Shown here in pieces: positions 3,484 through 33,830 of a DNA stretch of 64,000 nt. Each line of letters starts with the position of its first letter. Position 1 is the first letter of the stretch. Origin of the DNA: Klebsiella grimontii (GTDB lineage: Bacteria > Pseudomonadota > Gammaproteobacteria > Enterobacterales > Enterobacteriaceae); assembly GCF_900200035.1 (NCBI RefSeq), contig NZ_FZTC01000009.1:1-64000 (forward strand), written 5' to 3'. The notes beneath the pieces were generated by a model. That model was not told the DNA's origin. It saw only the letters and a program-made list of their open reading frames with translations, and searched no databases. A program made the translations under genes and the position numbers.

Positions 3484-4788
3484 ATGAAGACTCGTACCCA
3501 ACAAATCGAAGAATTAAACAAAGAGTGGACGAAACCGCGCTGGGAAGGGATTACCCGCCCATACAGCGCCGAGGACGTGGTGAAGCTACGCGGCTCGGTC
3601 AATCCAGAGTGTACCCTGGCGCAGCTGGGCGCGGCAAAGATGTGGCGACTCCTGCACGGCGAAGCGAAAAAAGGCTACATCAACAGCCTGGGCGCGCTGA
3701 CCGGCGGGCAGGCGCTGCAGCAGGCGAAAGCGGGCATTGAAGCGATTTATCTTTCCGGCTGGCAGGTCGCGGCGGACGCCAACCTGGCTTCCAGCATGTA
3801 TCCGGATCAATCGCTCTATCCGGCAAACTCGGTACCGGCAGTTGTCGATCGGATCAACAACACCTTCCGCCGCGCGGATCAGATCCAGTGGTCTGCGGGC
3901 ATTGAGCTGAACGATCCGCGTTATACCGATTATTTCCTGCCGATCGTCGCCGACGCGGAAGCGGGATTTGGCGGCGTGCTTAATGCGTTCGAGCTGATGA
4001 AATCGATGATTGAGGCCGGTGCAGCGGCCGTACACTTCGAAGACCAGCTGGCATCGGTGAAGAAATGCGGCCATATGGGCGGCAAAGTACTGGTACCCAC
4101 GCAAGAAGCGATTCAGAAACTGGTTGCCGCGCGCCTGGCGGCGGACGTGATGGGCGTGCCGACCCTGGTGATCGCCCGTACTGACGCCGATGCGGCGGAT
4201 TTAATTACCTCAGACTGCGATCCTTACGATCGTCAGTTCATCACCGGAGACCGTACCAGCGAAGGGTTCTTCCGCACCCATGCCGGTATCGAACAGGCGA
4301 TCAGCCGCGGGCTGGCCTACGCGCCCTATGCCGACCTGGTGTGGTGTGAAACTTCCACCCCGGACCTTGAGCTGGCAAAGCGCTTTGCCGATGCGATTCA
4401 CGCGAAATATCCGGGCAAACTGCTGGCCTACAACTGCTCGCCGTCGTTTAACTGGCAGAAAAAGCTGGATGATAAAACCATTGCCAGCTTCCAGCAGCAG
4501 CTGGCGGATATGGGCTACAAGTATCAGTTCATCACCCTGGCCGGTATCCACAGCATGTGGTTCAACATGTTCGATCTGGCGCACGCTTACGCCCAGGGCG
4601 AGGGCATGAAGCATTATGTTGAGAAAGTCCAGCAGCCGGAGTTCGCGGCGGCTAAAGATGGCTACACCTTTGTCTCTCATCAGCAGGAAGTGGGTACCGG
4701 CTACTTCGATAAGGTGACCACCATTATCCAGGGCGGAACATCGTCGGTGACGGCGCTGACCGGCTCGACGGAAGAGTCGCAGTTCTGA
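3484..4788 (+). CDS. aceA: isocitrate lyase
   Basis: ORF contains [16 protein letters not shown]-like start (E. coli AceA N-terminus); track ORF begins 5 codons upstream at 3469, but the start was placed at 3484 to match E. coli AceA. Confidence 0.93.
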
Positions 4789-23695: not shown

Positions 23696-24568
23696 ATGCT
23701 GCCCGACTCATCAACCCGACTTAATAAATACATCAGCGAGAGCGGAATTTGCTCGCGCCGTGAAGCCGATCGCTTTATTGAACAAGGCAACGTTTTTATC
23801 AACGGCAAGCGCGCCACCATTGGCGACCAGGTTAAAGCTGGCGACGTGGTAAAGGTCAATGGCCGGTTGATTGAGCCGCGCGAAGCGGACGATCTGGTCC
23901 TGATTGCGCTGAATAAACCGGTTGGCATCGTCAGCACCACCGAAGACGGCGAGCGCGACAATATTGTGGATTTCGTTAACCACAGTAAACGCATTTTCCC
24001 AATCGGTCGTCTGGATAAAGACTCCCAGGGGCTGATCTTTCTGACCAACCATGGCGATCTGGTGAATAAGATCCTGCGCGCTGGTAACGATCACGAAAAA
24101 GAGTATCTGGTCACCGTTGATAAGCTAATAACCGATGAGTTTATCCGCGGTATGGGCGCGGGGGTACCGATTCTCGGCACGGTGACGAAGAAGTGCAAAG
24201 TGAAAAAAGAAGCGCCGTTTGTATTTCGCATCACCCTGGTGCAGGGGCTGAATCGCCAGATTCGCCGGATGTGCGAACACTTTGGCTATGAAGTGACGAA
24301 GCTTGAACGGACGCGGATCATGAACGTCAGCCTGACGGGGATCCCGCTGGGAGAGTGGCGCGATCTGACCGATGATGAGCTGATCGATCTCTTTAAACTG
24401 ATTGAGAGCTCGTCTTCAGAAGCGAAACCGAAGGCAAAAGCAAAGCCGAAAACGGCCGGCATCAAGCGCCCGGTGGTGGCGATTGAAAAAAGCGGCGAGA
24501 AATCTTCCCGCCCGGCGTCGAACGGCAAACGCTTTACCGCGCCGGGGCGCAGAAAGAAAGGGCGTTAA
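23696..24568 (+). CDS. rluF: 23S rRNA pseudouridine(2604) synthase
   Basis: 290 aa, near-identity to E. coli RluF ([26 protein letters not shown]…). Confidence 0.93.
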
Positions 24569-24837
24569 CGTCTGCCGCGGGTCGGCGTATTGGCCGACCA
24601 GGAAAACGAGGCCTCTGCATCCGGTTTGTATGCCTGCTTTTTCTTCAGCTGGCGGGCTTTTTTCGCCTCGGTTTCCCGCTGGAGCATCAGCTTATCGATG
24701 TACTCTTTTTTCACGCTATTGGTTTCCGCGTTAGTCAGCGGACGGCCGTGGGCGATGCGCGCGCGGTCGAGCAGGGTTTTCAGTTCTCGCTGTTCGCGCT
24801 CGGTCATCTCTTTTTGGGTGATGCGGGGGAGTGCCAT
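24565..24837 (-). CDS. yjbD: DUF3811 protein YjbD
   Basis: 90 aa, near-identity to E. coli YjbD ([36 protein letters not shown]…). Confidence 0.85.
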
Positions 24838-25023
24838 AGTCGTGCCCTCAGTTAGCCTATGGCTTCAGTGTACGGTATTGGGGCTGACGTCTCACGGTAA
24901 ATTATTGTGCCTCGCAGAAAATCCCTGAGGCGGTGCTGCGCACCTGTCCGGGCTACAAAACCCGCAAGCTGCACGGACCGTAGCCCGGCTAAGCGCAGCG
25001 CAAGCCGGGAAAATTACGGGTTG

Positions 25024-25965
25024 TTAGCTCTCTTTTACCGTTTTACGCGATTTATCAACAATAGGCTTTCCTGACCAGTAACCGGCCAGCAGCGAGCCGG
25101 ACAGGTTGTGCCAGACCGAGAACAGCGCGCCGGGCAGCGCGGCCAGCGGGCCAAAGTAGATTTTCCCCAGCGCGGCAGCAAGGCCGGAGTTCTGCATTCC
25201 CACCTCGATCGCCAGCGTGCGGCAGGTGGACTCGTCAAAGCCAAACAGCCGTCCGCCCCAGTAGCCGCCGAGCAGGCCGATGGTGTTATGCAGGATGACG
25301 GCGATAATCACCACAAAGCCTACGGAAGCGATATGCGACGCGGAACCGGCCACCACGGCGCAGATAATCGCCAGAATGCAGACCATCGAAAAGGCCGGCA
25401 GGAACGGCTCAACCGCCTTGACCACTTTCGGCAGCAGATGATGCACGACCAGCCCCAGCGCAATCGGGATCACCACGATTTGCAGAATGCTGAGCAGCAT
25501 CCCCATCACGTCCACCTGAATATGCGCATCTACGTACAGACGCGTCAGCAACGGCGTGGCGACCACACCGACCAGCGTGGAAACCGACGAGATGGTGACC
25601 GAAAGCGCGACATCGCCTTTTGCCAGAAAGATCATCACGTTGGATGCCGTACCGCTGGCGACGCTGCCGACCAGCACCATCCCGGCGGAGAGCTCCGGCG
25701 GCATATGAAAAATCAGCGCCAGCAGCCAGGCGGCGAGGGGCATCACCAGGTAGTGGAGAAAAATGCCTGCGGCGACCGGCGCGGGGCGGGAAAGCACGCG
25801 CTTAAAATCGTCGACTTTCAGGTGCACGCCCATACCGAACATAATCAGCATCAGCAGCGTCGGGACCCACGGGCCAACGGGAGTGAAAGTGGATGGCGTG
25901 TAATAGGCGATAACCGAGAGCAGCAGCGCCCATAATGGGAACAGCCGCGTAAGCGTGGCGAGCAT
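25024..25965 (-). CDS. bile acid:sodium symporter (BASS) family transporter
   Basis: 313-aa polytopic membrane protein with BASS-family topology/motifs; not present at this position in E. coli K-12. Confidence 0.7.
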
Positions 25966-26076
25966 GTTGTTTTCCTTGCACGTAAGTTGTGTTTGCTTGT
26001 TATAGACCGGCCGGGATCGAGCCCGGCCATCGCTATTGTTTATCGTGCTAAGACATATTATTCAAACAAATTATGC

Positions 26077-27657
26077 TCATGTTCCGCTGCGGACGATCTC
26101 CCAACTGAGTCCGAAGCGCGCTAAATACTTGCGCAGACGGTCGGCATCGTTGGGATTGGCCTTTTTCTGCCGGGAGACGGCGAACAGCTCGCGTCCGGCT
26201 TCGGAGAGCGAAGCGCTGCGTTGGCAGACCGCCAGCACCGTTTCCAGCTGGCGGCGATCGAACAGATCGATTTCCATCGCAATATCAGGAGAAGATGTCG
26301 TGAGCTGCCAGCTCGCTTTCAGCAGCATTATCTCCTCTTCCGCAACGGCCAGCGTAATGCGCCCCTGCTCGGCCAGGGTCGCCATGCGCGTCACGGACGA
26401 ACTAAGTTCGCGGAAATTGCCGCGCCATTGCGCCTGCGGCGAGCAGGCAAAGGCCAGATAGCGCTCGCGGGCGTCTTTATCGAAGCGGATCTGCGTCTGC
26501 CGCTCGTTGGCCAGTCGGCGTAATTCATACTCCACGTTCGGCGCAATATCTTCCCGCCGCTGCGCCAGGCCGGGGAGGGCAAAGCGCCACATATTGATGC
26601 GCGCATAAAGATCTTCGCGAAAGCGCCCCTCTGCCACCCACTGCTGCATATCGCGATGCGTGCCGGCGATCAGCTGGAAGTCGCTGTGCACCTCTTTATC
26701 CGAGCCAAACGGAAAAAAGGTTTTTTCTTCGATGGCCTTCAGCAGCATGGCCTGCTCATCCAGCCCCAGCTCGGCGATTTCATCGAGAAACAGTACGCCG
26801 CCGTCGGCTTCGCGTAATAGCCCGGCGCGAGGCGTCACCGCGCCGGTAAACGCGCCTTTGACATGGCCAAACAGCGTGGACATGGCGTTATCGCCGCGCA
26901 GCGTGGCGCAGTTCACCGCCATGAATTTTCCCGCCACCCGATGCCGCGACTGACGAAGCTGAAAAATACGTTTGGCGAGGACGGATTTACCAGCGCCCGT
27001 TGGGCCGGTAAGCAGGATCGGATCGGTCGATCGGATCGCCACGCGCTCAATACGATCGATAAGCGCGTTGAACGTCGCGTTCCGCGTCTCGATGCCTGCC
27101 TTCAGGAAGGAGACGGACTGCTGCTGCTCGCGCTGAAAGCGGCTGGTGAGCGCCGTATAGCGGCTTAAGTCCAGATCGATCACCGAGTAAATACCGGCGG
27201 CGACGGCTTCATCCGCTGCGCTTTTCGGCGCAGGGCTGGTCTGCAGCAGGCTGGCGGGGAGGTAGCGCGCTTCGGTCAGTAGGAACCAGCAGATCTGCGC
27301 CACGTGGGTCCCGGTGGTGATATGCACCAGATACTCTTCGTTTTCGGTATCAAAGCGATAGCGGTTGGCAAAGTCGAGAAACGCCGCGTAGACCTCTTCA
27401 AAATCCCAGGGATCGTTTATCTCAACCGTATGCGGGCGCACTTCGGTATGCGGCGAAAGCTGGGCGATATCGTCAATCAGCTTTTGCGCCATGCTTTCAT
27501 CACGCGGCTGGTGGAGGAGCTCCAGCCGGTCGACGGGAAAATCGGCCTGCTGGCATAGCCCCACGGTGGGCCGCCATTTTTTAAAGCGGTTCGCTCGCTT
27601 GCCGCGTTTATCCAGTACCGTTCCGAGGACGCCTATCACCACTCGCCGCTTTTTCAT
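26077..27657 (-). CDS. rtcR: sigma-54-dependent transcriptional activator RtcR (N-terminal CARF domain, AAA+ sigma-54 interaction domain, C-terminal HTH)
   Basis: Full-length collinear similarity to E. coli RtcR as recalled (…WRPTLCLCQQ…ELHNPWDFEEVYA…HITTGTHVAQICWFLLAEARYLPA…GAFTGA…ESFLA/GAFTGA motifs, LLxGPTGAGKS Walker A); start at MKKRRVVIGV. Confidence 0.9.
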   Translation of the reverse strand: MKKRRVVIGVLGTVLDKRGKRANRFKKWRPTVGLCQQADFPVDRLELLHQPRDESMAQKLIDDIAQLSPHTEVRPHTVEINDPWDFEEVYAAFLDFANRYRFDTENEEYLVHITTGTHVAQICWFLLTEARYLPASLLQTSPAPKSAADEAVAAGIYSVIDLDLSRYTALTSRFQREQQQSVSFLKAGIETRNATFNALIDRIERVAIRSTDPILLTGPTGAGKSVLAKRIFQLRQSRHRVAGKFMAVNCATLRGDNAMSTLFGHVKGAFTGAVTPRAGLLREADGGVLFLDEIAELGLDEQAMLLKAIEEKTFFPFGSDKEVHSDFQLIAGTHRDMQQWVAEGRFREDLYARINMWRFALPGLAQRREDIAPNVEYELRRLANERQTQIRFDKDARERYLAFACSPQAQWRGNFRELSSSVTRMATLAEQGRITLAVAEEEIMLLKASWQLTTSSPDIAMEIDLFDRRQLETVLAVCQRSASLSEAGRELFAVSRQKKANPNDADRLRKYLARFGLSWEIVRSGT

Positions 27658-27792
27658 GTTTATCCCAAAAGATAAGTATCGATATTTCAAGATAAAAAAA
27701 CCTGCTGGCGTGAGCAAGCGTCACGGTGTGCTTTAAAAATAAAAACTTTACTAATTAATTAGTTAAAAAATAACTTTCGCCATTTTTGTTTT

Positions 27793-27808
27793 TGGCACGC
27801 ATCTGGCA
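27793..27808 (+). promoter_or_regulatory. sigma-54 (-24/-12) promoter driving SPFH-nucleotidyltransferase operon
   Basis: TGGCACgcatcTGGCA: GG and GC with canonical 11-nt spacing (consensus TGGCAC-N5-TTGCA, one mismatch in the -12 block); located divergent from rtcR exactly as rtcBA promoter is in E. coli. Confidence 0.7.
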
Positions 27809-27905
27809 ATAGTCCTTTCGTCACGATGCTGAAGACGCAGGGGATTAAACCCCGCCGGCACGCCAGGAACGGTACAGACCGTTTTTCGGGCGCGTTCTGT
27901 CAGCC

Positions 27906-27944
27906 GATGACCACCAATGGGTTCGATTCCCGATTTCATCTCCA
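27906..27944 (+). ncRNA. candidate tRNA-like minihelix (T-arm + acceptor-like stem + CCA) inside the sigma-54 transcribed leader
   Basis: gatga-ccaccaa-[tggGTTCGATTCCcga]-tt-tcatc-tCCA: the 11-mer GGTTCGATTCC is the canonical tRNA T-stem/loop; flanking 5-bp helix gatga/tcatc then N-CCA mimics acceptor stem, discriminator and CCA end; no full cloverleaf. Confidence 0.35.
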
Positions 27945-28104
27945 ATGAAAACTGGTTGTTAATCATAAAAACACAACGGGGTTGTGCGCAGTCGGCACTC
28001 CCCAAAGCAGGCCGCCGGTAAAGGCGCCGTGCCGCAGGCAAAAGGGAGTTCCCCTGCGGCTCCGCCCCTGCACCCGCGCCTGATTAACTGTTAAGGAATA
28101 AAAA

Positions 28105-29232
28105 ATGACGAAAAAAATTACGGTACGTAAAGGTCAGCTTGGCCTTTTATCCCGCCAGGGTGACTACTATCAGGTTCTGGAAGCAGGCGAGCACCGCCTG
28201 CCGTGGTTCAACGTTCCTGACGTGCTGATCGTAAACCGGGACGGCAGCGAGGTGCCGGAAGCGCTGGCGGAGTATTTACGGCGCTTTCAGCCTGAATGGG
28301 TTGAACGCTACTGCCTGGCGGCGGATTTGACGGATATCGAAACCGGGGCGCTGTATGCCAACGGTGTGCTGCAGGACATTTTACCGCCTTCGACGCGCCG
28401 GCTGTACTGGTCCGCCGGTGACGAGATGCGGCTGCTACGTATCGATACCCGCCAGGTTGAGGTTCCGGCTGACATCATGAATGCGGTGCTGCAGCCGCGA
28501 CGTCACGGGGCGGTAAAAGGCCGCGAAGCGATCCTCACCGTATCGGTGCCGGCGTGGCACGTCGGGGTGCTGAAAATCGACGGCGAGACACAATCGCTGC
28601 TGCAGCCTGGCCTGAGCGCGTACTGGAAGGTCAATCATCTGGTGGAAGCGGAAGTGGTCGATACCCGCCTGCAGGTGCTGGAGGTTGGCGGCCAGGAGAT
28701 TCTGACCAAAGATAAAGTGAACCTGCGTTTAAATCTGGCGGCGAACTGGCGCTACAGCGATGTGCTGCAGGCGTTCGGACAGCTGACGAAGCCGCTGGAT
28801 CATCTGTATCGCGAGCTGCAGTTTGCGCTGCGTGAAGCCGTCGGGACGCGAACGCTGGACGAGCTGCTGGAAGATAAGAAAATCATCGATGAGGTGGTGA
28901 GCGCGCAGGTTACCGAGCGCATGGCGGCATTTGGCATCGACGTCGCCTCGCTGGGCGTGAAGGATATTGTGCTGCCCGGCGACATGAAAGCCATTCTGTC
29001 GCAGCTGGTGGAAGCGGAGAAATCGGCGCAGGCGAATGTGATCCGCCGCCGTGAAGAGACCGCGGCGACCCGTTCGCTGCTCAACACCGCGAAGGTGATG
29101 GAAAATAACCCTGTCGCGCTGCGCTTAAAAGAGCTGGAAACGCTGGAAAGAGTGGCGGAACGTATCGATAAAATCTCGGTCTTTGGCGGTCTGGACCAGG
29201 TGCTGCATGGCCTGGTGAATCTAAAAGGATAA
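28105..29232 (+). CDS. SPFH/band-7 (stomatin/prohibitin/flotillin/HflKC)-domain protein, no N-terminal TM segment
   Basis: 375 aa; C-terminal region (…ASLGVKDIVLPGDMKAILSQLVEAEKSAQANVIRRREETAATRSLLNTAKVM…) has typical SPFH + coiled-coil character; strong AGGAATAA-N-ATG RBS context; stop overlaps next gene. Confidence 0.65.
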   Translation: MTKKITVRKGQLGLLSRQGDYYQVLEAGEHRLPWFNVPDVLIVNRDGSEVPEALAEYLRRFQPEWVERYCLAADLTDIETGALYANGVLQDILPPSTRRLYWSAGDEMRLLRIDTRQVEVPADIMNAVLQPRRHGAVKGREAILTVSVPAWHVGVLKIDGETQSLLQPGLSAYWKVNHLVEAEVVDTRLQVLEVGGQEILTKDKVNLRLNLAANWRYSDVLQAFGQLTKPLDHLYRELQFALREAVGTRTLDELLEDKKIIDEVVSAQVTERMAAFGIDVASLGVKDIVLPGDMKAILSQLVEAEKSAQANVIRRREETAATRSLLNTAKVMENNPVALRLKELETLERVAERIDKISVFGGLDQVLHGLVNLKG

Positions 29233-30026
29233 TGAAAATGACGTATCACGGTGTGAATGCCGCTATGCGCCATAAGGTGCAACGGCAGTTAACGGACGTG
29301 GAGCGGCGCTACGGCGTCAGAGTGCTCTACGCCTGTGAATCCGGTAGCCGAGGCTGGGGCTTTGCCTCGCCGGACAGCGATTATGATGTGCGGTTTCTCT
29401 ACGTTCACCCGCTGGAGTGGTATCTGCGGGTGGACGCGCCGCGCGATGTTATCGAGCTGCCCATCGCCGATGAGCTGGACGTCTGCGGCTGGGAGTGGCG
29501 CAAAGCGCTGGGTCTGCTGAAAGGGGCGAATCCGACGCTGATTGAATGGTTGGATTCACCGGTGGTGTATCGGCAGGATGACGCGACGGTTAAGGCGCTT
29601 AAAAAACTCATCCCGCATTGGTTTTCTCCGGTACGCGCCCGCTGGCATTACTACTCGATGGCCAGGAAAAATTTTCGCGGCTATCTGCAAGGCGAACACG
29701 TGCGGCTGAAAAAGTACTTTTACGTACTGCGCCCGCTGCTGGCCGTCCGCTGGGTTGAGGCGGGAAAAGGCGTACCGCCGATGCGCTTTGATCAACTGCT
29801 GGCGGGAAGCGAGCTGGAAACGGGGCTGCGTGAGGAAATAAACGCGCTGCTGGAACGTAAACAACGTGCGGGAGAGGCGGAGTACGGCCCGCGGCGACCA
29901 TTACTGCATGCGTTTATTCAGTCCGAGCTGCTCAGAGGCGCGATCCCTCCCGCGCTGCCGGATAGCCGGACAGGGGATATTAGGGAGTTGGACAGATTGC
30001 TGATGACCACGGTGATGGGGAACTAA
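29232..30026 (+). CDS. Pol-beta-superfamily nucleotidyltransferase (kanamycin-nucleotidyltransferase-like fold; COG3541-type predicted NTase)
   Basis: 264 aa; minimal NTase signature GSRGWGFASPDSDYDVRF (G[GS]…D-x-D) near N-terminus plus helical C-terminal domain; translationally coupled (TAATG) to upstream SPFH gene. Confidence 0.65.
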   Translation: MKMTYHGVNAAMRHKVQRQLTDVERRYGVRVLYACESGSRGWGFASPDSDYDVRFLYVHPLEWYLRVDAPRDVIELPIADELDVCGWEWRKALGLLKGANPTLIEWLDSPVVYRQDDATVKALKKLIPHWFSPVRARWHYYSMARKNFRGYLQGEHVRLKKYFYVLRPLLAVRWVEAGKGVPPMRFDQLLAGSELETGLREEINALLERKQRAGEAEYGPRRPLLHAFIQSELLRGAIPPALPDSRTGDIRELDRLLMTTVMGN

Positions 30027-30060
30027 AAATGGCCCGGCAGAAATGACGGGCCATTTTTTC
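30027..30060. terminator. bidirectional hairpin terminator between NTase gene and lysC
   Basis: aaaatggcccg…cgggccatttttt inverted repeat flanked by A/T tracts on both sides. Confidence 0.65.
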
Positions 30061-30064
30061 GCCA

Positions 30065-31414
30065 TTACTCGAACAGATTATGATGCAGCTTCTGCACCAC
30101 TTTTTCGGCATCCGCTCCCGGCACCAGGAAGCACAGGTTGTGGCTGGATGCGCCATAGCAAATCATTCGAATGTTGAACGGATCCAGCACGCCAAACACC
30201 TCTTTACCGACGCCGCACGCTTTCGACAGCTCATTACCAATGATGGCGACCAGCGCCAGATCCTGCTCGACCTCAACCCGGCACAGAGAGGAAAGTTCGG
30301 TCAACAGCCCTTGGGTGAGCAGGGTATCGCCAGCTGACGTTGAACCGGTGGTATCCATGGTTAGCGCCACGCTCACTTCCGACGTGGTGATCAGATCGAC
30401 GGAGATGCTGTGACGCGCCAGAATACTAAACACTTCGGCCAGAAAACCACGCGAGTGCAGCATATTCAGGCTGTGCAGGGTTAGCAGCGTCTGCTTGCGG
30501 CGCAGCGCCAGCGCGCGGAACAGCGGCGGGTTTTTGGTGTTTTTGCACACCAGCGTGCCGCCGGCCTTCGGCTCTTTGCTGGAGCCGACGAATACCGGAA
30601 TATCGCTGCGCACGGCGGGGAGCAGGGTGGCCGGATGCAGGACCTTCGCGCCAAAGGTCGCCATTTCCGCCGCTTCTTCAAAAGCGATAACGTCAATGCG
30701 TTTGGCTGCCGGCGCGACGCGCGGGTCGGTGGTGTAGATACCAGGAACATCGGTCCAGATATCGACGCGGGTGGCGTTTAGCGCTTCGCCGAGCAGCGCG
30801 GCGGTATAGTCGCTGCCGCCGCGGCCCAGGGTAGTGGTACGGCCTTTGGCTTCGCTGCCGATAAAGCCCTGGGTGATCACCAGCCCTTCCGCAAGGCGCG
30901 GGGTCAGCTGCTGCTGGGTTAATTCAGATAAGGCGGCGATATCCGGTTCCGCGCGGCCAAAGCGGTCGTTGGTGCGCATAATTTTGCGTACGTCGAACCA
31001 CTGGGCGGCGATACCGCGCTCGCGCAGGATCTCGACAAACAGCAGGGTAGACATCAGTTCGCCGTGGCTGACCAGCTCGTCGGTTAACGCGGTTGAACTG
31101 GCCAGGGAGGCAGCTTCCGCCAGGGTGGTGATGTTTTCCAGCAGGCGCTCTATTTCATCGCGGATCACGTTCGGATAGCGCAGACGCTCCAGAATATTGA
31201 ACTGGATTTGACGCATGGCATCGAGTTTCGCGAAACGTTCGCCGGGTTCCAGCCCTTCCGCTAATGCGACCAGCAGGTTGGTCACGCCCGCTGAGGCGGA
31301 AAGCACCACCACGCGGGTATTGGCATCCAACAGCGCGACGTCTACGCTGCGGTTCATGGCATCAAAATCGGCAACGCTGGTGCCGCCGAACTTGGCTACA
31401 ACTAAATCTGTCAT
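30065..31414 (-). CDS. lysC: lysine-sensitive aspartokinase III
   Basis: 449 aa, near-identity to E. coli LysC (M…VVSKFGGTSVADFDAMNRSA…). Confidence 0.95.
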   Translation of the reverse strand: MTDLVVAKFGGTSVADFDAMNRSVDVALLDANTRVVVLSASAGVTNLLVALAEGLEPGERFAKLDAMRQIQFNILERLRYPNVIRDEIERLLENITTLAEAASLASSTALTDELVSHGELMSTLLFVEILRERGIAAQWFDVRKIMRTNDRFGRAEPDIAALSELTQQQLTPRLAEGLVITQGFIGSEAKGRTTTLGRGGSDYTAALLGEALNATRVDIWTDVPGIYTTDPRVAPAAKRIDVIAFEEAAEMATFGAKVLHPATLLPAVRSDIPVFVGSSKEPKAGGTLVCKNTKNPPLFRALALRRKQTLLTLHSLNMLHSRGFLAEVFSILARHSISVDLITTSEVSVALTMDTTGSTSAGDTLLTQGLLTELSSLCRVEVEQDLALVAIIGNELSKACGVGKEVFGVLDPFNIRMICYGASSHNLCFLVPGADAEKVVQKLHHNLFE

Positions 31415-31539
31415 AACAACCTCGTGTCAGGGGGCCTGACTTATTAAAACGATTCCAGAAAACCAATCCTGGCGGGGCTGGACGCAACCGGATTGCAATA
31501 AAATGTCTTAATAAGCCAGGCCAAATTATTCAGCCATGG

Positions 31540-31840
31540 CACAAGGGAAGAGCGAAAAACAGGGTGGGCGCAGAGCGATAAACAAACTACGATGTCACCC
31601 AGAAGTGCTCCACCTTGTAGACCCGCTTGCCGATGCTTTGTATCAGCTGGCGAGTATGAAACGCCCGACTGCGAACGTTTCTGGTGACAACCCAGGGGAT
31701 TCAGCCCCTGTGGCCGGTGATGAGCGTAACCAGACGCTTATTCACCTCGGCGTTGCTCCCCCTCACGTATTTTCCCCGGACTGGCTCCTCCAATACGGTT
31801 ACCTGGGCAACGCACCTCTTCTGGCAATTACCGACGTCTT
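31540..31840 (-). ncRNA. lysine riboswitch (L-box) in lysC 5' leader
   Basis: Reverse complement reads CCAGAAGAGGTGCGTTGCCCAGGTAACCGTATTGGAGGAGCCAGTCCGGGGAAAATACGTGAGGGGGAGCAACGCCGAGGTG… which matches the E. coli lysC leader riboswitch core (AGAGGCGC…GGTGTTGGAGGAGCCAGTCC…GAGGGGG…GCCGAGGTG) as recalled. Confidence 0.8.
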
Positions 31841-32180
31841 TCACTTTGCCAGGGGGACGCGGGACATTATACCCCCCTGCAATACCCTTTCGCTGTAGCG
31901 TGAAATGCGCGATCCATACATACCTACGTATACGTAAATACTGCCGTTATATAAAGGCTTCAGGCGAAGTATGTCAACGTCAGGGTTATGCGGATTTTTC
32001 ATGGGCGGGTCGCTGACAGAAAAAAGCCTTATGATGTCTATACTATCAGGGGCGTTTTGCGCCAAATCGGTCCAATTTCTGACGCGTATCATCGGCATAA
32101 CATAAAAATCATCACAATTTTTCGTCACCGGCGCTACAATCGACCGCAGTCACAATTCTCAAATCAGAAGAGTATTGCTA

Positions 32181-33830
32181 ATGAAAAACATCAACCCAAC
32201 GCAGACCTCTGCCTGGCAGGCATTACAGAAACACTTTGATGAAATGAAAGACGTTACCATCGCGGATCTGTTCGCGAAGGATAGCGATCGTTTCTCTAAA
32301 TTCTCCGCCACGTTCGACGATCTGATGCTGGTGGATTTTTCCAAAAACCGCATCACCGAAGAGACGCTGGCTAAGCTGCAGGACCTGGCCAAAGAGACCT
32401 TCCTGGCAGACGCCATTAAATCCATGTTCTCCGGCGAGAAGATTAACCGCACGGAAGACCGCGCGGTGCTGCACGTTGCGCTGCGTAACCGCAGCAATAC
32501 TCCGATTCTGGTTGATGGCAAAGACGTGATGCCGGAAGTGAACGCCGTGCTTGAGAAGATGAAAACCTTCTCCGAAGCCATTATCTCCGGCAACTGGAAA
32601 GGCTACACCGGTAAAGCGATTACCGACGTCGTGAACATCGGTATCGGCGGCTCCGACCTCGGCCCGTTCATGGTGACCGAAGCGCTGCGCCCGTACAAAA
32701 ACCACCTGAACATGCACTTTGTTTCCAACGTCGATGGGACCCACATCGCCGAAGTGCTGAAAACGGTGAACCCGGAAACCACGCTGTTCCTGGTCGCGTC
32801 GAAAACCTTTACCACTCAGGAAACCATGACCAACGCTCACAGCGCGCGCGACTGGTTCCTGGCGACCGCCGGCGATGAGAAGCACGTAGCGAAACACTTC
32901 GCCGCGCTCTCGACCAACGGTAAAGCGGTTGGCGAGTTCGGTATTGATACCGCCAATATGTTTGAATTCTGGGACTGGGTTGGCGGCCGTTACTCTCTGT
33001 GGTCAGCCATCGGCCTGTCCATCATCCTGTCCGTCGGCTTCGACAACTTTGTTGAGCTGCTCTCCGGCGCGCACGCGATGGATAAACACTTCTCCACGAC
33101 CGCGCCTGAGAAAAACCTGCCGGTACTGCTGGCGCTGATCGGTATCTGGTACAACAACTTCTTCGGTGCTGAAACCGAAGCGATTCTGCCGTACGACCAG
33201 TATATGCACCGCTTTGCCGCCTACTTCCAGCAGGGCAACATGGAATCCAACGGTAAATACGTTGACCGTAACGGCAACGCCGTGGATTACCAGACGGGCC
33301 CAATCATCTGGGGCGAGCCGGGTACCAACGGTCAGCACGCGTTCTACCAGCTGATTCACCAGGGGACCAAAATGGTGCCTTGCGACTTTATCGCCCCGGC
33401 GATTACCCACAACCCGCTGTCCGACCACCATCCGAAGCTGCTGTCTAACTTCTTTGCCCAGACCGAAGCGCTGGCGTTTGGTAAATCCCGCGAAGTGGTT
33501 GAGCAGGAGTATCGCGATCAGGGTAAAGATCCGGCGACCCTGGAACACGTGGTGCCGTTCAAAGTGTTTGAAGGCAACCGCCCGACCAACTCCATCCTGC
33601 TGCGTGAAATTACGCCGTTCAGCCTGGGCGCGCTGATTGCCCTGTATGAGCACAAAATCTTCACCCAGGGCGTGATTATGAACATCTTCACCTTCGACCA
33701 GTGGGGCGTGGAGCTGGGCAAACAGCTGGCTAACCGCATCCTGCCGGAGCTGAAAGATGGTTCCGAAGTGAGCAGCCACGACAGCTCCACTAACGGCCTG
33801 ATTAACCGCTATAAATCCTGGCGCGCATAA
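32181..33830 (+). CDS. pgi: glucose-6-phosphate isomerase
   Basis: 549 aa from [34 protein letters not shown] (E. coli Pgi N-terminus). Confidence 0.95.

Follow-up and report, generated by a model that had tools for sequence, protein, structure and literature searches.

RtcR-controlled RNA-repair operons have broken tRNAs as their on-switch, the activator RtcR responding to 5′ tRNA halves that end in a 2′,3′-cyclic phosphate (PMC7790460). The nucleotidyltransferase RlaP adds one or two nucleoside monophosphates to RNA 3′-OH ends and has been suggested to replace the nucleotides that damaged tRNAs have lost (PMC12776372). Two tRNA-like RNAs had already been described or predicted in operons of this type. 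YrlA (Rfam RF02553) is the tRNA-mimicking Y RNA of the Salmonella rsr-yrlBA-rtcBA operons (PMC4201824; 10.1101/312249), and its conserved T-loop/D-loop elbow is thought to be the docking site for an unknown factor (10.1101/312249). The second, the b7a-tRNA (band-7-associated tRNA), was predicted by Burroughs & Aravind 2016 and, in the summary given by Wang et al. (bioRxiv 10.1101/312249), was without experimental validation as of that 2018 preprint. The present analysis concerns a 64,000-nt stretch of the Klebsiella grimontii genome (contig NZ_FZTC01000009.1, referred to as the window), in which two genes encoding an SPFH/Band-7 protein and RlaP are preceded by a conserved, structured leader RNA of ~260 nt. 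In the leader a three-way junction at the 5′ end and a stem domain at the 3′ end flank a tRNA-like module. The mimic found here is embedded in a larger covarying RNA, and is paired with an SPFH protein and an RlaP nucleotidyltransferase only. The best explanation, to which we give a probability of about 0.6, is that this RNA would be the structured leader of an RtcR/sigma-54 SPFH–RlaP operon, that its module is a mimic of the tRNA elbow descended from one of the tandem tRNA-like elements of other proteobacteria, and that it may act on the repair system.

The operon is small. The SPFH gene (28105–29232, + strand) encodes a ‘slipin’ protein of 375 residues (Pfam Band_7, 6.4e-27) that is 97% identical to its K. 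michiganensis counterpart, and is followed by the RlaP gene (29232–30026, + strand; PF10127; Pfam RlaP, 8.6e-96). Divergent from the leader lies rtcR (26077–27657, − strand), which encodes a sigma-54 enhancer-binding activator with a CARF-type RtcR domain; its identity is given by Pfam RtcR (3.7e-83) and Sigma54_activat (2e-49) and by NCBIfam RNA_repair_RtcR, which scores 827 bits against a cut-off of 650. An RtcB gene is absent from the locus. The spacer between rtcR and the SPFH gene is 447 nt long and holds every feature listed in a prediction made earlier from the sequence (the original prediction). All coordinates given below for the leader are on the + strand.

The original prediction had placed a sigma-54 promoter of the form TGGCAC-N5-TGGCA at the start of the leader, and this promoter (TGGCAC-GCATC-TGGCA, −24/−12 type) is indeed present at 27793–27808. 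The element TGGCACGCATCTGGCA contains the −24 GG and −12 GC at consensus spacing and adjoins rtcR, as would be expected of a promoter served by RtcR and RpoN. Transcription is predicted to start near 27819–27821, ~285 nt upstream of the SPFH gene; the start had been put at this distance before, and the adjacent rtcR together with the conservation of the sigma-54 motif in the Citrobacter and E. coli homologues lends it support. Among 81 related loci, 33 contain the pattern YTGGCAYR-N3-4-YTSGCW 130–190 nt upstream of the first T loop. At the other end of the leader, the Shine–Dalgarno sequence AAGGA and the SPFH start codon (28093–28107, ATG at 28105) are both free in the consensus structure. 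No terminator on the + strand was detected between the tRNA-like element and the SPFH gene, nor was a separate promoter or an attenuator found there. That the SPFH–RlaP leader is driven by RtcR and sigma-54 is thus a supported prediction from the promoter motif and its setting.

The leader is conserved well beyond Klebsiella. In Citrobacter freundii the spacer is 77% identical over its entire length, and among E. coli genomes 1632 of 5426 complete ones (30%) carry the leader, with ~74% identity across 290 nt; there it occupies the same chromosomal site (yjbD...lysC) upstream of the same SPFH–RlaP pair, with rtcR not adjacent. Most of the leader is kept across genera, as are its promoter and T arm. 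A scan with an SPFH profile, taking one genome per species, provided 80 more loci, and further enteric variants were collected from metagenomes with a pattern that required both GGTTCGATTCC and ACTGGTTGT, two motifs of the module described below. The fold was tested on an alignment of 17 distinct enteric leaders with RNAalifold and pair counts. The consensus contains 57 base pairs in eight helices, with 95% of cells paired. Compensatory changes occur in 26 of the 57 pairs, as against 15.0 ± 2.1 in column shuffles, none of 500 of which reached 26, and the covariation score is 0.324 versus at most 0.085 when the partners are slid by 1–3 columns. Covariation in orthologous leaders had been proposed as a check on the original prediction; the leader as a whole shows it, and the acceptor minihelix put forward in that prediction does not.

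The 5′ domain (27828–27904) is a three-way junction closed by the stem GCTGA/TCAGC (27828–32 with 27900–04). It contains a hairpin, P1 (GCAGGGG/CCCCGC, 27837–43 with 27850–55), and a long bulged hairpin (27856–73 with 27878–99). These three helices are 95–98% paired, with compensatory changes in 8 of 27 pairs, and the domain carries the invariant motif CCCCGCCGGCAC. The GGGG/CCCC hairpin named in the original prediction is found at 27840–27853, within P1. The other hairpin it placed here, AACGGT/ACCGTT followed by TTTTT, does exist at 27868–27883, where it forms the tip of the longer covarying 5′ stem; the terminator-like reading of it does not stand. In 31 of 81 loci the first T loop is preceded, at a distance of 70–120 nt, by the motif CCCGCCGGYRC. 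This motif (27846–27856 in the window) is almost invariant in the 5′ domains from enterics to betaproteobacteria, and in six related loci it is found again downstream of the tRNA-like elements.

The 3′ domain (27980–28081) begins with a hairpin, E1 (27980–86 with 27996–28002), and continues with a stem, E2, built from three segments (28010–18 with 28073–81, 28023–27 with 28064–68, and 28031–42 with 28049–60). Helices 5–8, which form this domain, are 91–99% paired and show compensatory changes in 17 of 26 pairs. E2 includes the ccgcagg/cctgcgg hairpin of the original prediction, which lies at 28032–28059, ~30 nt upstream of the position assigned to it (28062–92). The two domains are joined to the central module by linkers. 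The first, CGATGACCACCA (27905–27916, including GATGA at 27906–27910), varies in sequence between genera; the second (27960–27979) is A/U-rich, variable and poorly conserved in the alignment. At gathering thresholds, Rfam searches of the window and 16 loci returned only lysine riboswitch and cloverleaf tRNA matches and left the leader domains unmatched. With the limit relaxed to E ≤ 10, scans of the spacer in 601-nt and 101-nt pieces gave no match save the core of a tmRNA T arm.

Several other pairings were considered for the leader and set aside. On the first four sequences, RNAalifold joined ACGCCAG and CTGGTTGT in a closing stem like that of a tRNA; this was rejected because, with 17 sequences, the strand pairs locally inside the long hairpin, and because CCAG changes without compensation while CTGG is fixed. 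A GTCA/TGAC hairpin at 27899–27911 is weakly supported, three of its four pairs departing only by unpaired cells, and it overlaps the closing stem GCTGA/TCAGC, which has better support. A 4-bp closing helix, ACCA/TGGT, drawn by eye from the linker to ACTGGTTGT, is not kept across genera and was dropped.

Between the two linkers lies the tRNA-like module. It starts with a canonical T arm (27917–27933), in which the stem UGGG/CCCG (27918–21 with 27929–32) encloses the T loop TTCGATT (27922–28) and the outermost A·A (27917 with 27933) is unpaired. The core of this arm, GGG-TTCGATT-CCC, comprising three G–C pairs and the loop, does not vary among 32 distinct enteric sequences, in which the fourth pair of the stem shows covariation (UA 8, CG 6, UG 6, AU 2, GC 1). 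The original prediction had drawn attention to the rarity of the T-loop 11-mer GGTTCGATTCC (27920–27930). It is the sole copy in the window; its significance nevertheless rests on conservation, since 1.2 matches with one mismatch are expected by chance. In Rfam the module is matched by the tmRNA T arm alone, over 13 nt and with 7.2 bits.

Directly after the T arm comes a closed, acceptor-like hairpin, TTTCAT-CTCCA-ATGAAA (27934–27950), with the stem formed by 27934–39 and 27945–50. It is 90–92.5% paired (92.5% in the 32 distinct sequences) and has compensatory changes in three of seven pairs (UA/AU, UA/CG and UA/CG). The strands found elsewhere include ATTCAT/ATGAAT, TTCATT/AATGAA, TTCATC/GATGAA, TCACC/GGTGA and TTCGCC/GGTGAA. 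Ensemble folding favours the closed hairpin in 38 of 41 variants, and in the window the strand 3′ of the T arm has a summed pair probability of 5.2 with downstream partners versus 0.05 with upstream ones. The hairpin is followed immediately by the single-stranded motif ACTGGTTGT (27951–27959), which stays the same in all genome loci retrieved independently, bar one C-to-A change in L005. It is proposed that the GG of this motif contacts the T loop as an analogue of the D loop. A D stem, an anticodon arm and a free CCA end are all absent from the module, which would imitate the tRNA ‘top half’ in minimal form: a T arm stacked on a closed hairpin, followed by a D-loop analogue. This description shares the probability given above for the whole explanation. 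A covariance model of the module scores 60–90 bits in Klebsiella, Citrobacter, E. coli, Superficieibacter and the metagenome variants and 25–30 bits in Lonsdalea and Mangrovibacter; elsewhere scores are at the level of a T arm only.

A different fold had originally been drawn for the same residues. The 39-mer at 27906–27944, which is present and unique in the window, was read as a T-arm/acceptor minihelix in which GATGA (27906–10) pairs with TCATC (27936–40) and is followed by a discriminator base and CCA, the whole serving as a substrate or sensor for a CCA-adding enzyme or RlaP. Such a helix and its CCA can certainly be drawn in the window sequence, and the activity of RlaP on RNA 3′ ends would suit it (PMC12776372). 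The homologous first element of betaproteobacterial loci, described below, does have a 7-bp acceptor stem and NCCA, and the upstream complementary strand is kept in Mangrovibacter, Superficieibacter and Lonsdalea. The helix is, however, only 73% paired in 19 distinct homologues; within the Klebsiella/Citrobacter/E. coli clade three of its five pairs break uncompensated, and it cannot form in E. coli and K. oxytoca. Its share of the pairing weight across the ensemble is ~1%. The CCA (27942–27944) sits in the loop of the closed hairpin and is unconserved; Citrobacter, E. coli and another Klebsiella have CCG or CCT at this place. A substrate end for a CCA-adding enzyme or nucleotidyltransferase is thus not conserved in enterics, because the fold that is conserved consists of the T arm, the closed hairpin and single-stranded ACTGGTTGT. 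The minihelix reading is accordingly improbable.

In several genera the strand that follows the T arm has complements both upstream and downstream, as in the window (27906–27910/27936–27940/27945–27950) and in L002, L006, L008 and L135. This double complementarity is possibly a relic of a permutation of strand order, or possibly a conformational switch.

The module can now be compared with the described RNAs. Like the b7a-tRNA, it is encoded just ahead of an SPFH gene, and on its strand, in an RNA-repair operon of the RtcR type; in the window the distance to the ATG is 185 nt. The T-arm sequence is common to both, and the enteric leader is collinear with leaders that carry a b7a-tRNA. Unlike the module, the b7a-tRNA is a full cloverleaf that tRNA finders recognize, scoring 37–64 bits with the Rfam tRNA model, whereas the window element corresponds to the reduced member of the tandem pair, has a permuted strand order and belongs to an operon without RtcB. 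Homology extends to the reduced first member of the tandem and not to the cloverleaf. ARAGORN found no tRNA or tmRNA gene in the window, and the Rfam tRNA model gave no match to the element at E ≤ 10 in the 601-nt and 101-nt scans, so that no cloverleaf is recognized. The original prediction had asked for tRNA, YrlA and tmRNA models to be applied, and by ARAGORN and by Rfam at this limit the element belongs to none of these families.

The comparison with YrlA used the Rfam YrlA model and the published description, in place of a Salmonella YrlA locus. Both RNAs belong to RtcR-controlled RNA-repair operons and are co-transcribed with repair genes, co-transcription being predicted in the window. 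Both also have the order T arm, closed 6-bp acceptor-like stem and GG-containing D-loop region, with no free CCA. They differ in several respects. The window element has no gene for Ro60/Rsr (TROVE) within ±4 kb, and neither the Ro-binding motif GNCGAA nor any CGAA occurs in 27819–28104. It lacks the UA dinucleotide and the D stem, and three nucleotides (A-C-T) separate the hairpin from the GG, as against nine in YrlA. Finally, the element is placed between two structured domains, whereas YrlA is placed on a Ro-binding stem. The Rfam YrlA model has no match in the window at E ≤ 10, although it does score 28 bits on the tandem locus L014.

A resemblance to tmRNA (RF00023, RF04321) is seen in the stack of acceptor and T arm and in a D-loop analogue that has no D stem. 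The first residues of E. coli tmRNA are GGGGCTG-ATTCTGGAT, and ACTGGTTGT resembles ATTCTGGAT. Two-piece tmRNAs have a permuted gene order as well, with the T arm and 3′ strand ahead of the 5′ strand. The Rfam tmRNA model also matches the reduced element of L066 end to end, with the 328-nt body deleted. The window element, however, contains no mRNA-like (tag) reading frame and no pseudoknots, its match is limited to the 13 nt of the T arm, and its closed end excludes aminoacylation. The mascRNA/MEN-beta RNAs and viral tRNA-like structures are likewise tRNA-shaped modules inside longer transcripts, and reduced betaproteobacterial elements give weak mascRNA matches (25–31 bits), but no evolutionary or contextual link exists and the window element itself is unmatched. 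In summary, the element lacks the defining properties of the tRNA/b7a cloverleaf, of YrlA, of tmRNA and of an att scar; by context and homology it is linked to the Band-7-associated tRNA-like elements, and in topology it is YrlA-like. The general proposal of a structured leader with a tRNA-mimicking module in a YrlA-like RtcR operon setting is supported, given the covarying fold and the tRNA-like genes found at the same position elsewhere.

These tRNA-like genes are found in betaproteobacteria and other gammaproteobacteria, where the layout is rtcR, sigma-54 promoter, leader, SPFH, RtcB and often RlaP. In most non-enteric loci ARAGORN and Rfam detect a tRNA-like gene that precedes the SPFH gene by 250–400 nt and shares its strand, with odd or variable anticodon loops and Rfam tRNA scores of 37–64 bits, and in most of them two T loops are present 70–76 nt apart. 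The second element is the full cloverleaf, the b7a-tRNA. The upstream element is usually reduced, consisting of a 7-bp acceptor stem of free sequence, a connector ‘n2-5-TGG-tg’, a T arm and the acceptor 3′ strand, often with a mini-hairpin bearing a GNRA-type loop; the tRNA-like domain of tmRNA is built in this way. A MAFFT alignment of the reduced betaproteobacterial elements was too misregistered for pair counting and was replaced by a test of acceptor complementarity against shuffled strands. At least six of seven acceptor pairs are Watson–Crick in 27 of 34 loci, versus 4.4 of 34 with shuffled strands. N + CCA follows the first element in 25 of the 34 and shares ~2 nt with the start of the cloverleaf element.

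The enteric element is tied to the first of these elements and not to the cloverleaf, because the T-loop type GGTTCGATTCC and the motif CCCGCCGGYRC are common to both and the profiles are collinear. A profile of the enteric leader (nhmmer) aligns collinearly from the promoter or the 5′ domain to the T arm of element 1 in L018, L016 and L020. It reaches only these 3 of 74 non-enteric loci, and the wider homology therefore rests on motif, position and architecture. ACTGGTTGT itself is similar to the connector ‘n2-5-TGG-tg’, which in the betaproteobacterial reduced element comes after the 5′ strand of the acceptor stem. Intermediate arrangements are seen among the enterics. Mangrovibacter has the ordinary strand order GCGAA-AAGTCGGTTA-T arm-TTCGC; in Lonsdalea, Superficieibacter and the metagenome relative L135 the upstream and downstream complements are both present; and in Klebsiella, Citrobacter and E. 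coli the downstream complement alone is kept as a conserved helix. This series suggests that the enteric element is a descendant of the first tandem element with circularly permuted strand order, the simplest reading being duplication and loss. Such a permutation would give the order T arm, 3′ strand, loop, 5′ strand and GG connector, which is the topology of YrlA. In L014 the YrlA model scores 28 bits (E 2e-4 in 231 nt) across the T arm of element 1, the abutting acceptor strands and the D arm of element 2, which hints that permuted mimics of the YrlA type can arise from such tandems.

Gene content varies along with the elements. The window operon has neither the second, cloverleaf element nor RtcB. 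Ten loci have one T loop and RlaP without RtcB, all of them enteric, and two T loops are present in 32 of 38 loci with RtcB. In the relaxed Rfam scans, the YrlA match to the tandem junction of L014 spans 3617–3722, and the reduced element is matched by the body-deleted tmRNA and by mascRNA in L066 (3608–3658) and L051 (3458–3507) with 22–31 bits. In L027 and L050 (Pseudomonas entomophila/P. soli) the sigma-54 promoter and CCCGCCGGTGC are kept ~460–380 nt upstream of the SPFH gene, and no T loop is present in the 700–1000 nt scanned upstream of SPFH; these loci represent an apparent natural loss of the tRNA-like elements.

Loss of this kind raises the question of whether the enteric element is itself a decaying relic, a non-functional remnant of tandem tRNA-like genes left after the enteric loss of RtcB and of the full tRNA-like gene. 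ARAGORN and the Rfam tRNA and YrlA models no longer recognize it, its D stem, anticodon arm and CCA are gone, and the two Pseudomonas loci have lost their T loops wholly. Decay is nevertheless difficult to reconcile with a T arm and ACTGGTTGT that stay unchanged from genus to genus beside linkers that have diverged freely, with compensatory substitutions in the hairpin and both flanking domains, and with retention of the element in 30% of E. coli genomes. We consider a relic quite improbable.

The original prediction had also raised the possibility that the segment is a vestigial tRNA 3′-end att site marking an island junction. The rtcR-SPFH-RlaP block is indeed variably present between yjbD/panS and lysC, and prophage or insertion sequence (IS) material lies beside the E. 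coli copies. The 39-mer, however, is unique in the window even with up to three mismatches, no direct repeat or second copy of it exists within 3.5 kb on either side, and no repeat family in 24500–31600 involves it. The element sits downstream of the promoter and ahead of the first gene, within the block and not at its edge. With no repeat, an element inside the transcribed leader, compensatory changes across genera and the same intra-operon position occupied in distant beta- and gammaproteobacteria, the att scar is refuted.

A possible setting of the RNA is suggested by the SPFH protein. No transmembrane helix is predicted for it. Its AlphaFold2 model (predicted local distance difference test score, pLDDT, 84) consists of two N-terminal β-repeat modules, the SPFH domain and a long C-terminal helix. 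Foldseek gives its longest alignments with the major vault protein (404–473 columns, E about 1e-9), whereas stomatin and HflKC match the SPFH part only, over ~230 columns. As the protein is predicted to be soluble and its longest structural alignments are to the major vault protein, an SPFH–RNA particle is a reasonable idea on the basis of the model.

According to the mechanism proposed here, tRNA damage would activate RtcR, the sigma-54 promoter would fire, and the leader would be produced together with the SPFH and RlaP mRNA. By docking on the T loop, ACTGGTTGT would then complete a tRNA elbow that has no usable ends. This elbow mimic, either in cis or after processing at the A/U-rich linkers, could be the handle for a partner that binds tRNA elbows, candidates being the SPFH assembly, RlaP or a host tRNA enzyme. 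By analogy with the Y RNAs of Ro60, the leader may serve as an RNA cofactor, scaffold or decoy of the repair system. A more ambitious version, which we put forward only as a tentative possibility, is that the entire ~260-nt leader is a new, uncatalogued non-coding RNA family and serves as the RNA component of a soluble, vault-like particle that SPFH forms and that works with RlaP. Such a particle would be the equivalent, without Ro, of the Ro60–Y RNA particle, and its RNA would have arisen from a tandem pair by circular permutation, as YrlA may have done.

The main rival to a role in the repair system is a leader that works in cis only, in which the module and domains recruit RNases (RNase P, Z or E) or shield the 5′ end, and so set the stability or translation of the SPFH–RlaP mRNA with no RNA acting in trans. 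The element does lie inside a 5′ untranslated region, with no terminator or separate promoter before the SPFH gene; A/U-rich linkers flank the module on both sides; and the tandem elements elsewhere abut like co-transcribed tRNAs, the first CCA overlapping the second 5′ end by 2 nt. Against this, the ribosome-binding site is free in the consensus structure and there is no attenuator. The acceptor end of the enteric module is closed, and a closed acceptor end makes a poor substrate for RNase P or Z. The ~260 nt of covarying structure also exceed the usual need of a stability element. A purely cis-acting leader is judged unlikely, while decay, the CCA minihelix and the att scar are the less serious alternatives, being unlikely or refuted.

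Certain points weigh against a repair-system role for an elbow mimic. A discrete small RNA, its expression, its processing and its binding are predictions, and the leader could act purely in cis, through mRNA stability or processing. The contact between GG and the T loop is proposed from conservation only, as the motif never varies and cannot covary. The invariance of GGTTCGATTCC and ACTGGTTGT is partly circular and rests on the seven genome-derived loci (the window and L001–L006), and the compensatory changes in the closed hairpin stem from few lineages. The structures tested were derived in part from the same alignments, which the slid-partner and shuffle controls remedy partly. Lastly, the association of a missing second element with a missing RtcB is a correlation from a single clade.

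Klebsiella, Citrobacter and ~30% of E. coli carry a minimal, rearranged tRNA mimic that standard tRNA and Rfam searches miss. The two-gene operon offers a genetically tractable system for asking what the mimic binds and what the Band-7 protein does in RNA repair, and the enteric loci provide a concrete intermediate series for the rise of permuted tRNA mimics such as YrlA.

The genes within ±4 kb of the leader are panS (25024–25965, − strand), rtcR, the SPFH and RlaP genes and lysC (30065–31414, − strand); rluF (23696–24568, + strand) and pgi (32175–33830, + strand) lie further out. A lysine riboswitch is found upstream of lysC (31595–31828, − strand; Rfam RF00168, 91.3 bits) and has a 60-nt insertion in one loop. 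In two E. coli genomes the SPFH–RlaP pair occurs without an adjacent rtcR, flanked by P2-like tail genes in IAI39 (L001, 8258–12293) and by a zeta toxin gene and IS1 in PT62 (L003, 8286–9900); as the flanks of the E. coli pair are prophage or IS material, the site appears to be an insertion hot spot. The C. freundii record L002 (NZ_CP151862.1, ‘plasmid unnamed2’, 425 kb) carries lysC, pgi, rluF and rtcR-SPFH-RlaP in chromosomal order, and because this order occurs on a record labelled as a plasmid, chromosomal origin or a misassembly is probable. Many non-enteric SPFH(-RtcB) loci have same-strand arrays of 9–28 ordinary-looking tRNA genes immediately upstream of SPFH (L071, 671–5985; L051, 18–3583; L056, 807–3580; L026, 1332–3294; L077; L054; L082), and in L071, L077 and L082 tRNA arrays are present downstream as well, which suggests that tRNA gene arrays are linked to the SPFH RNA-repair module.

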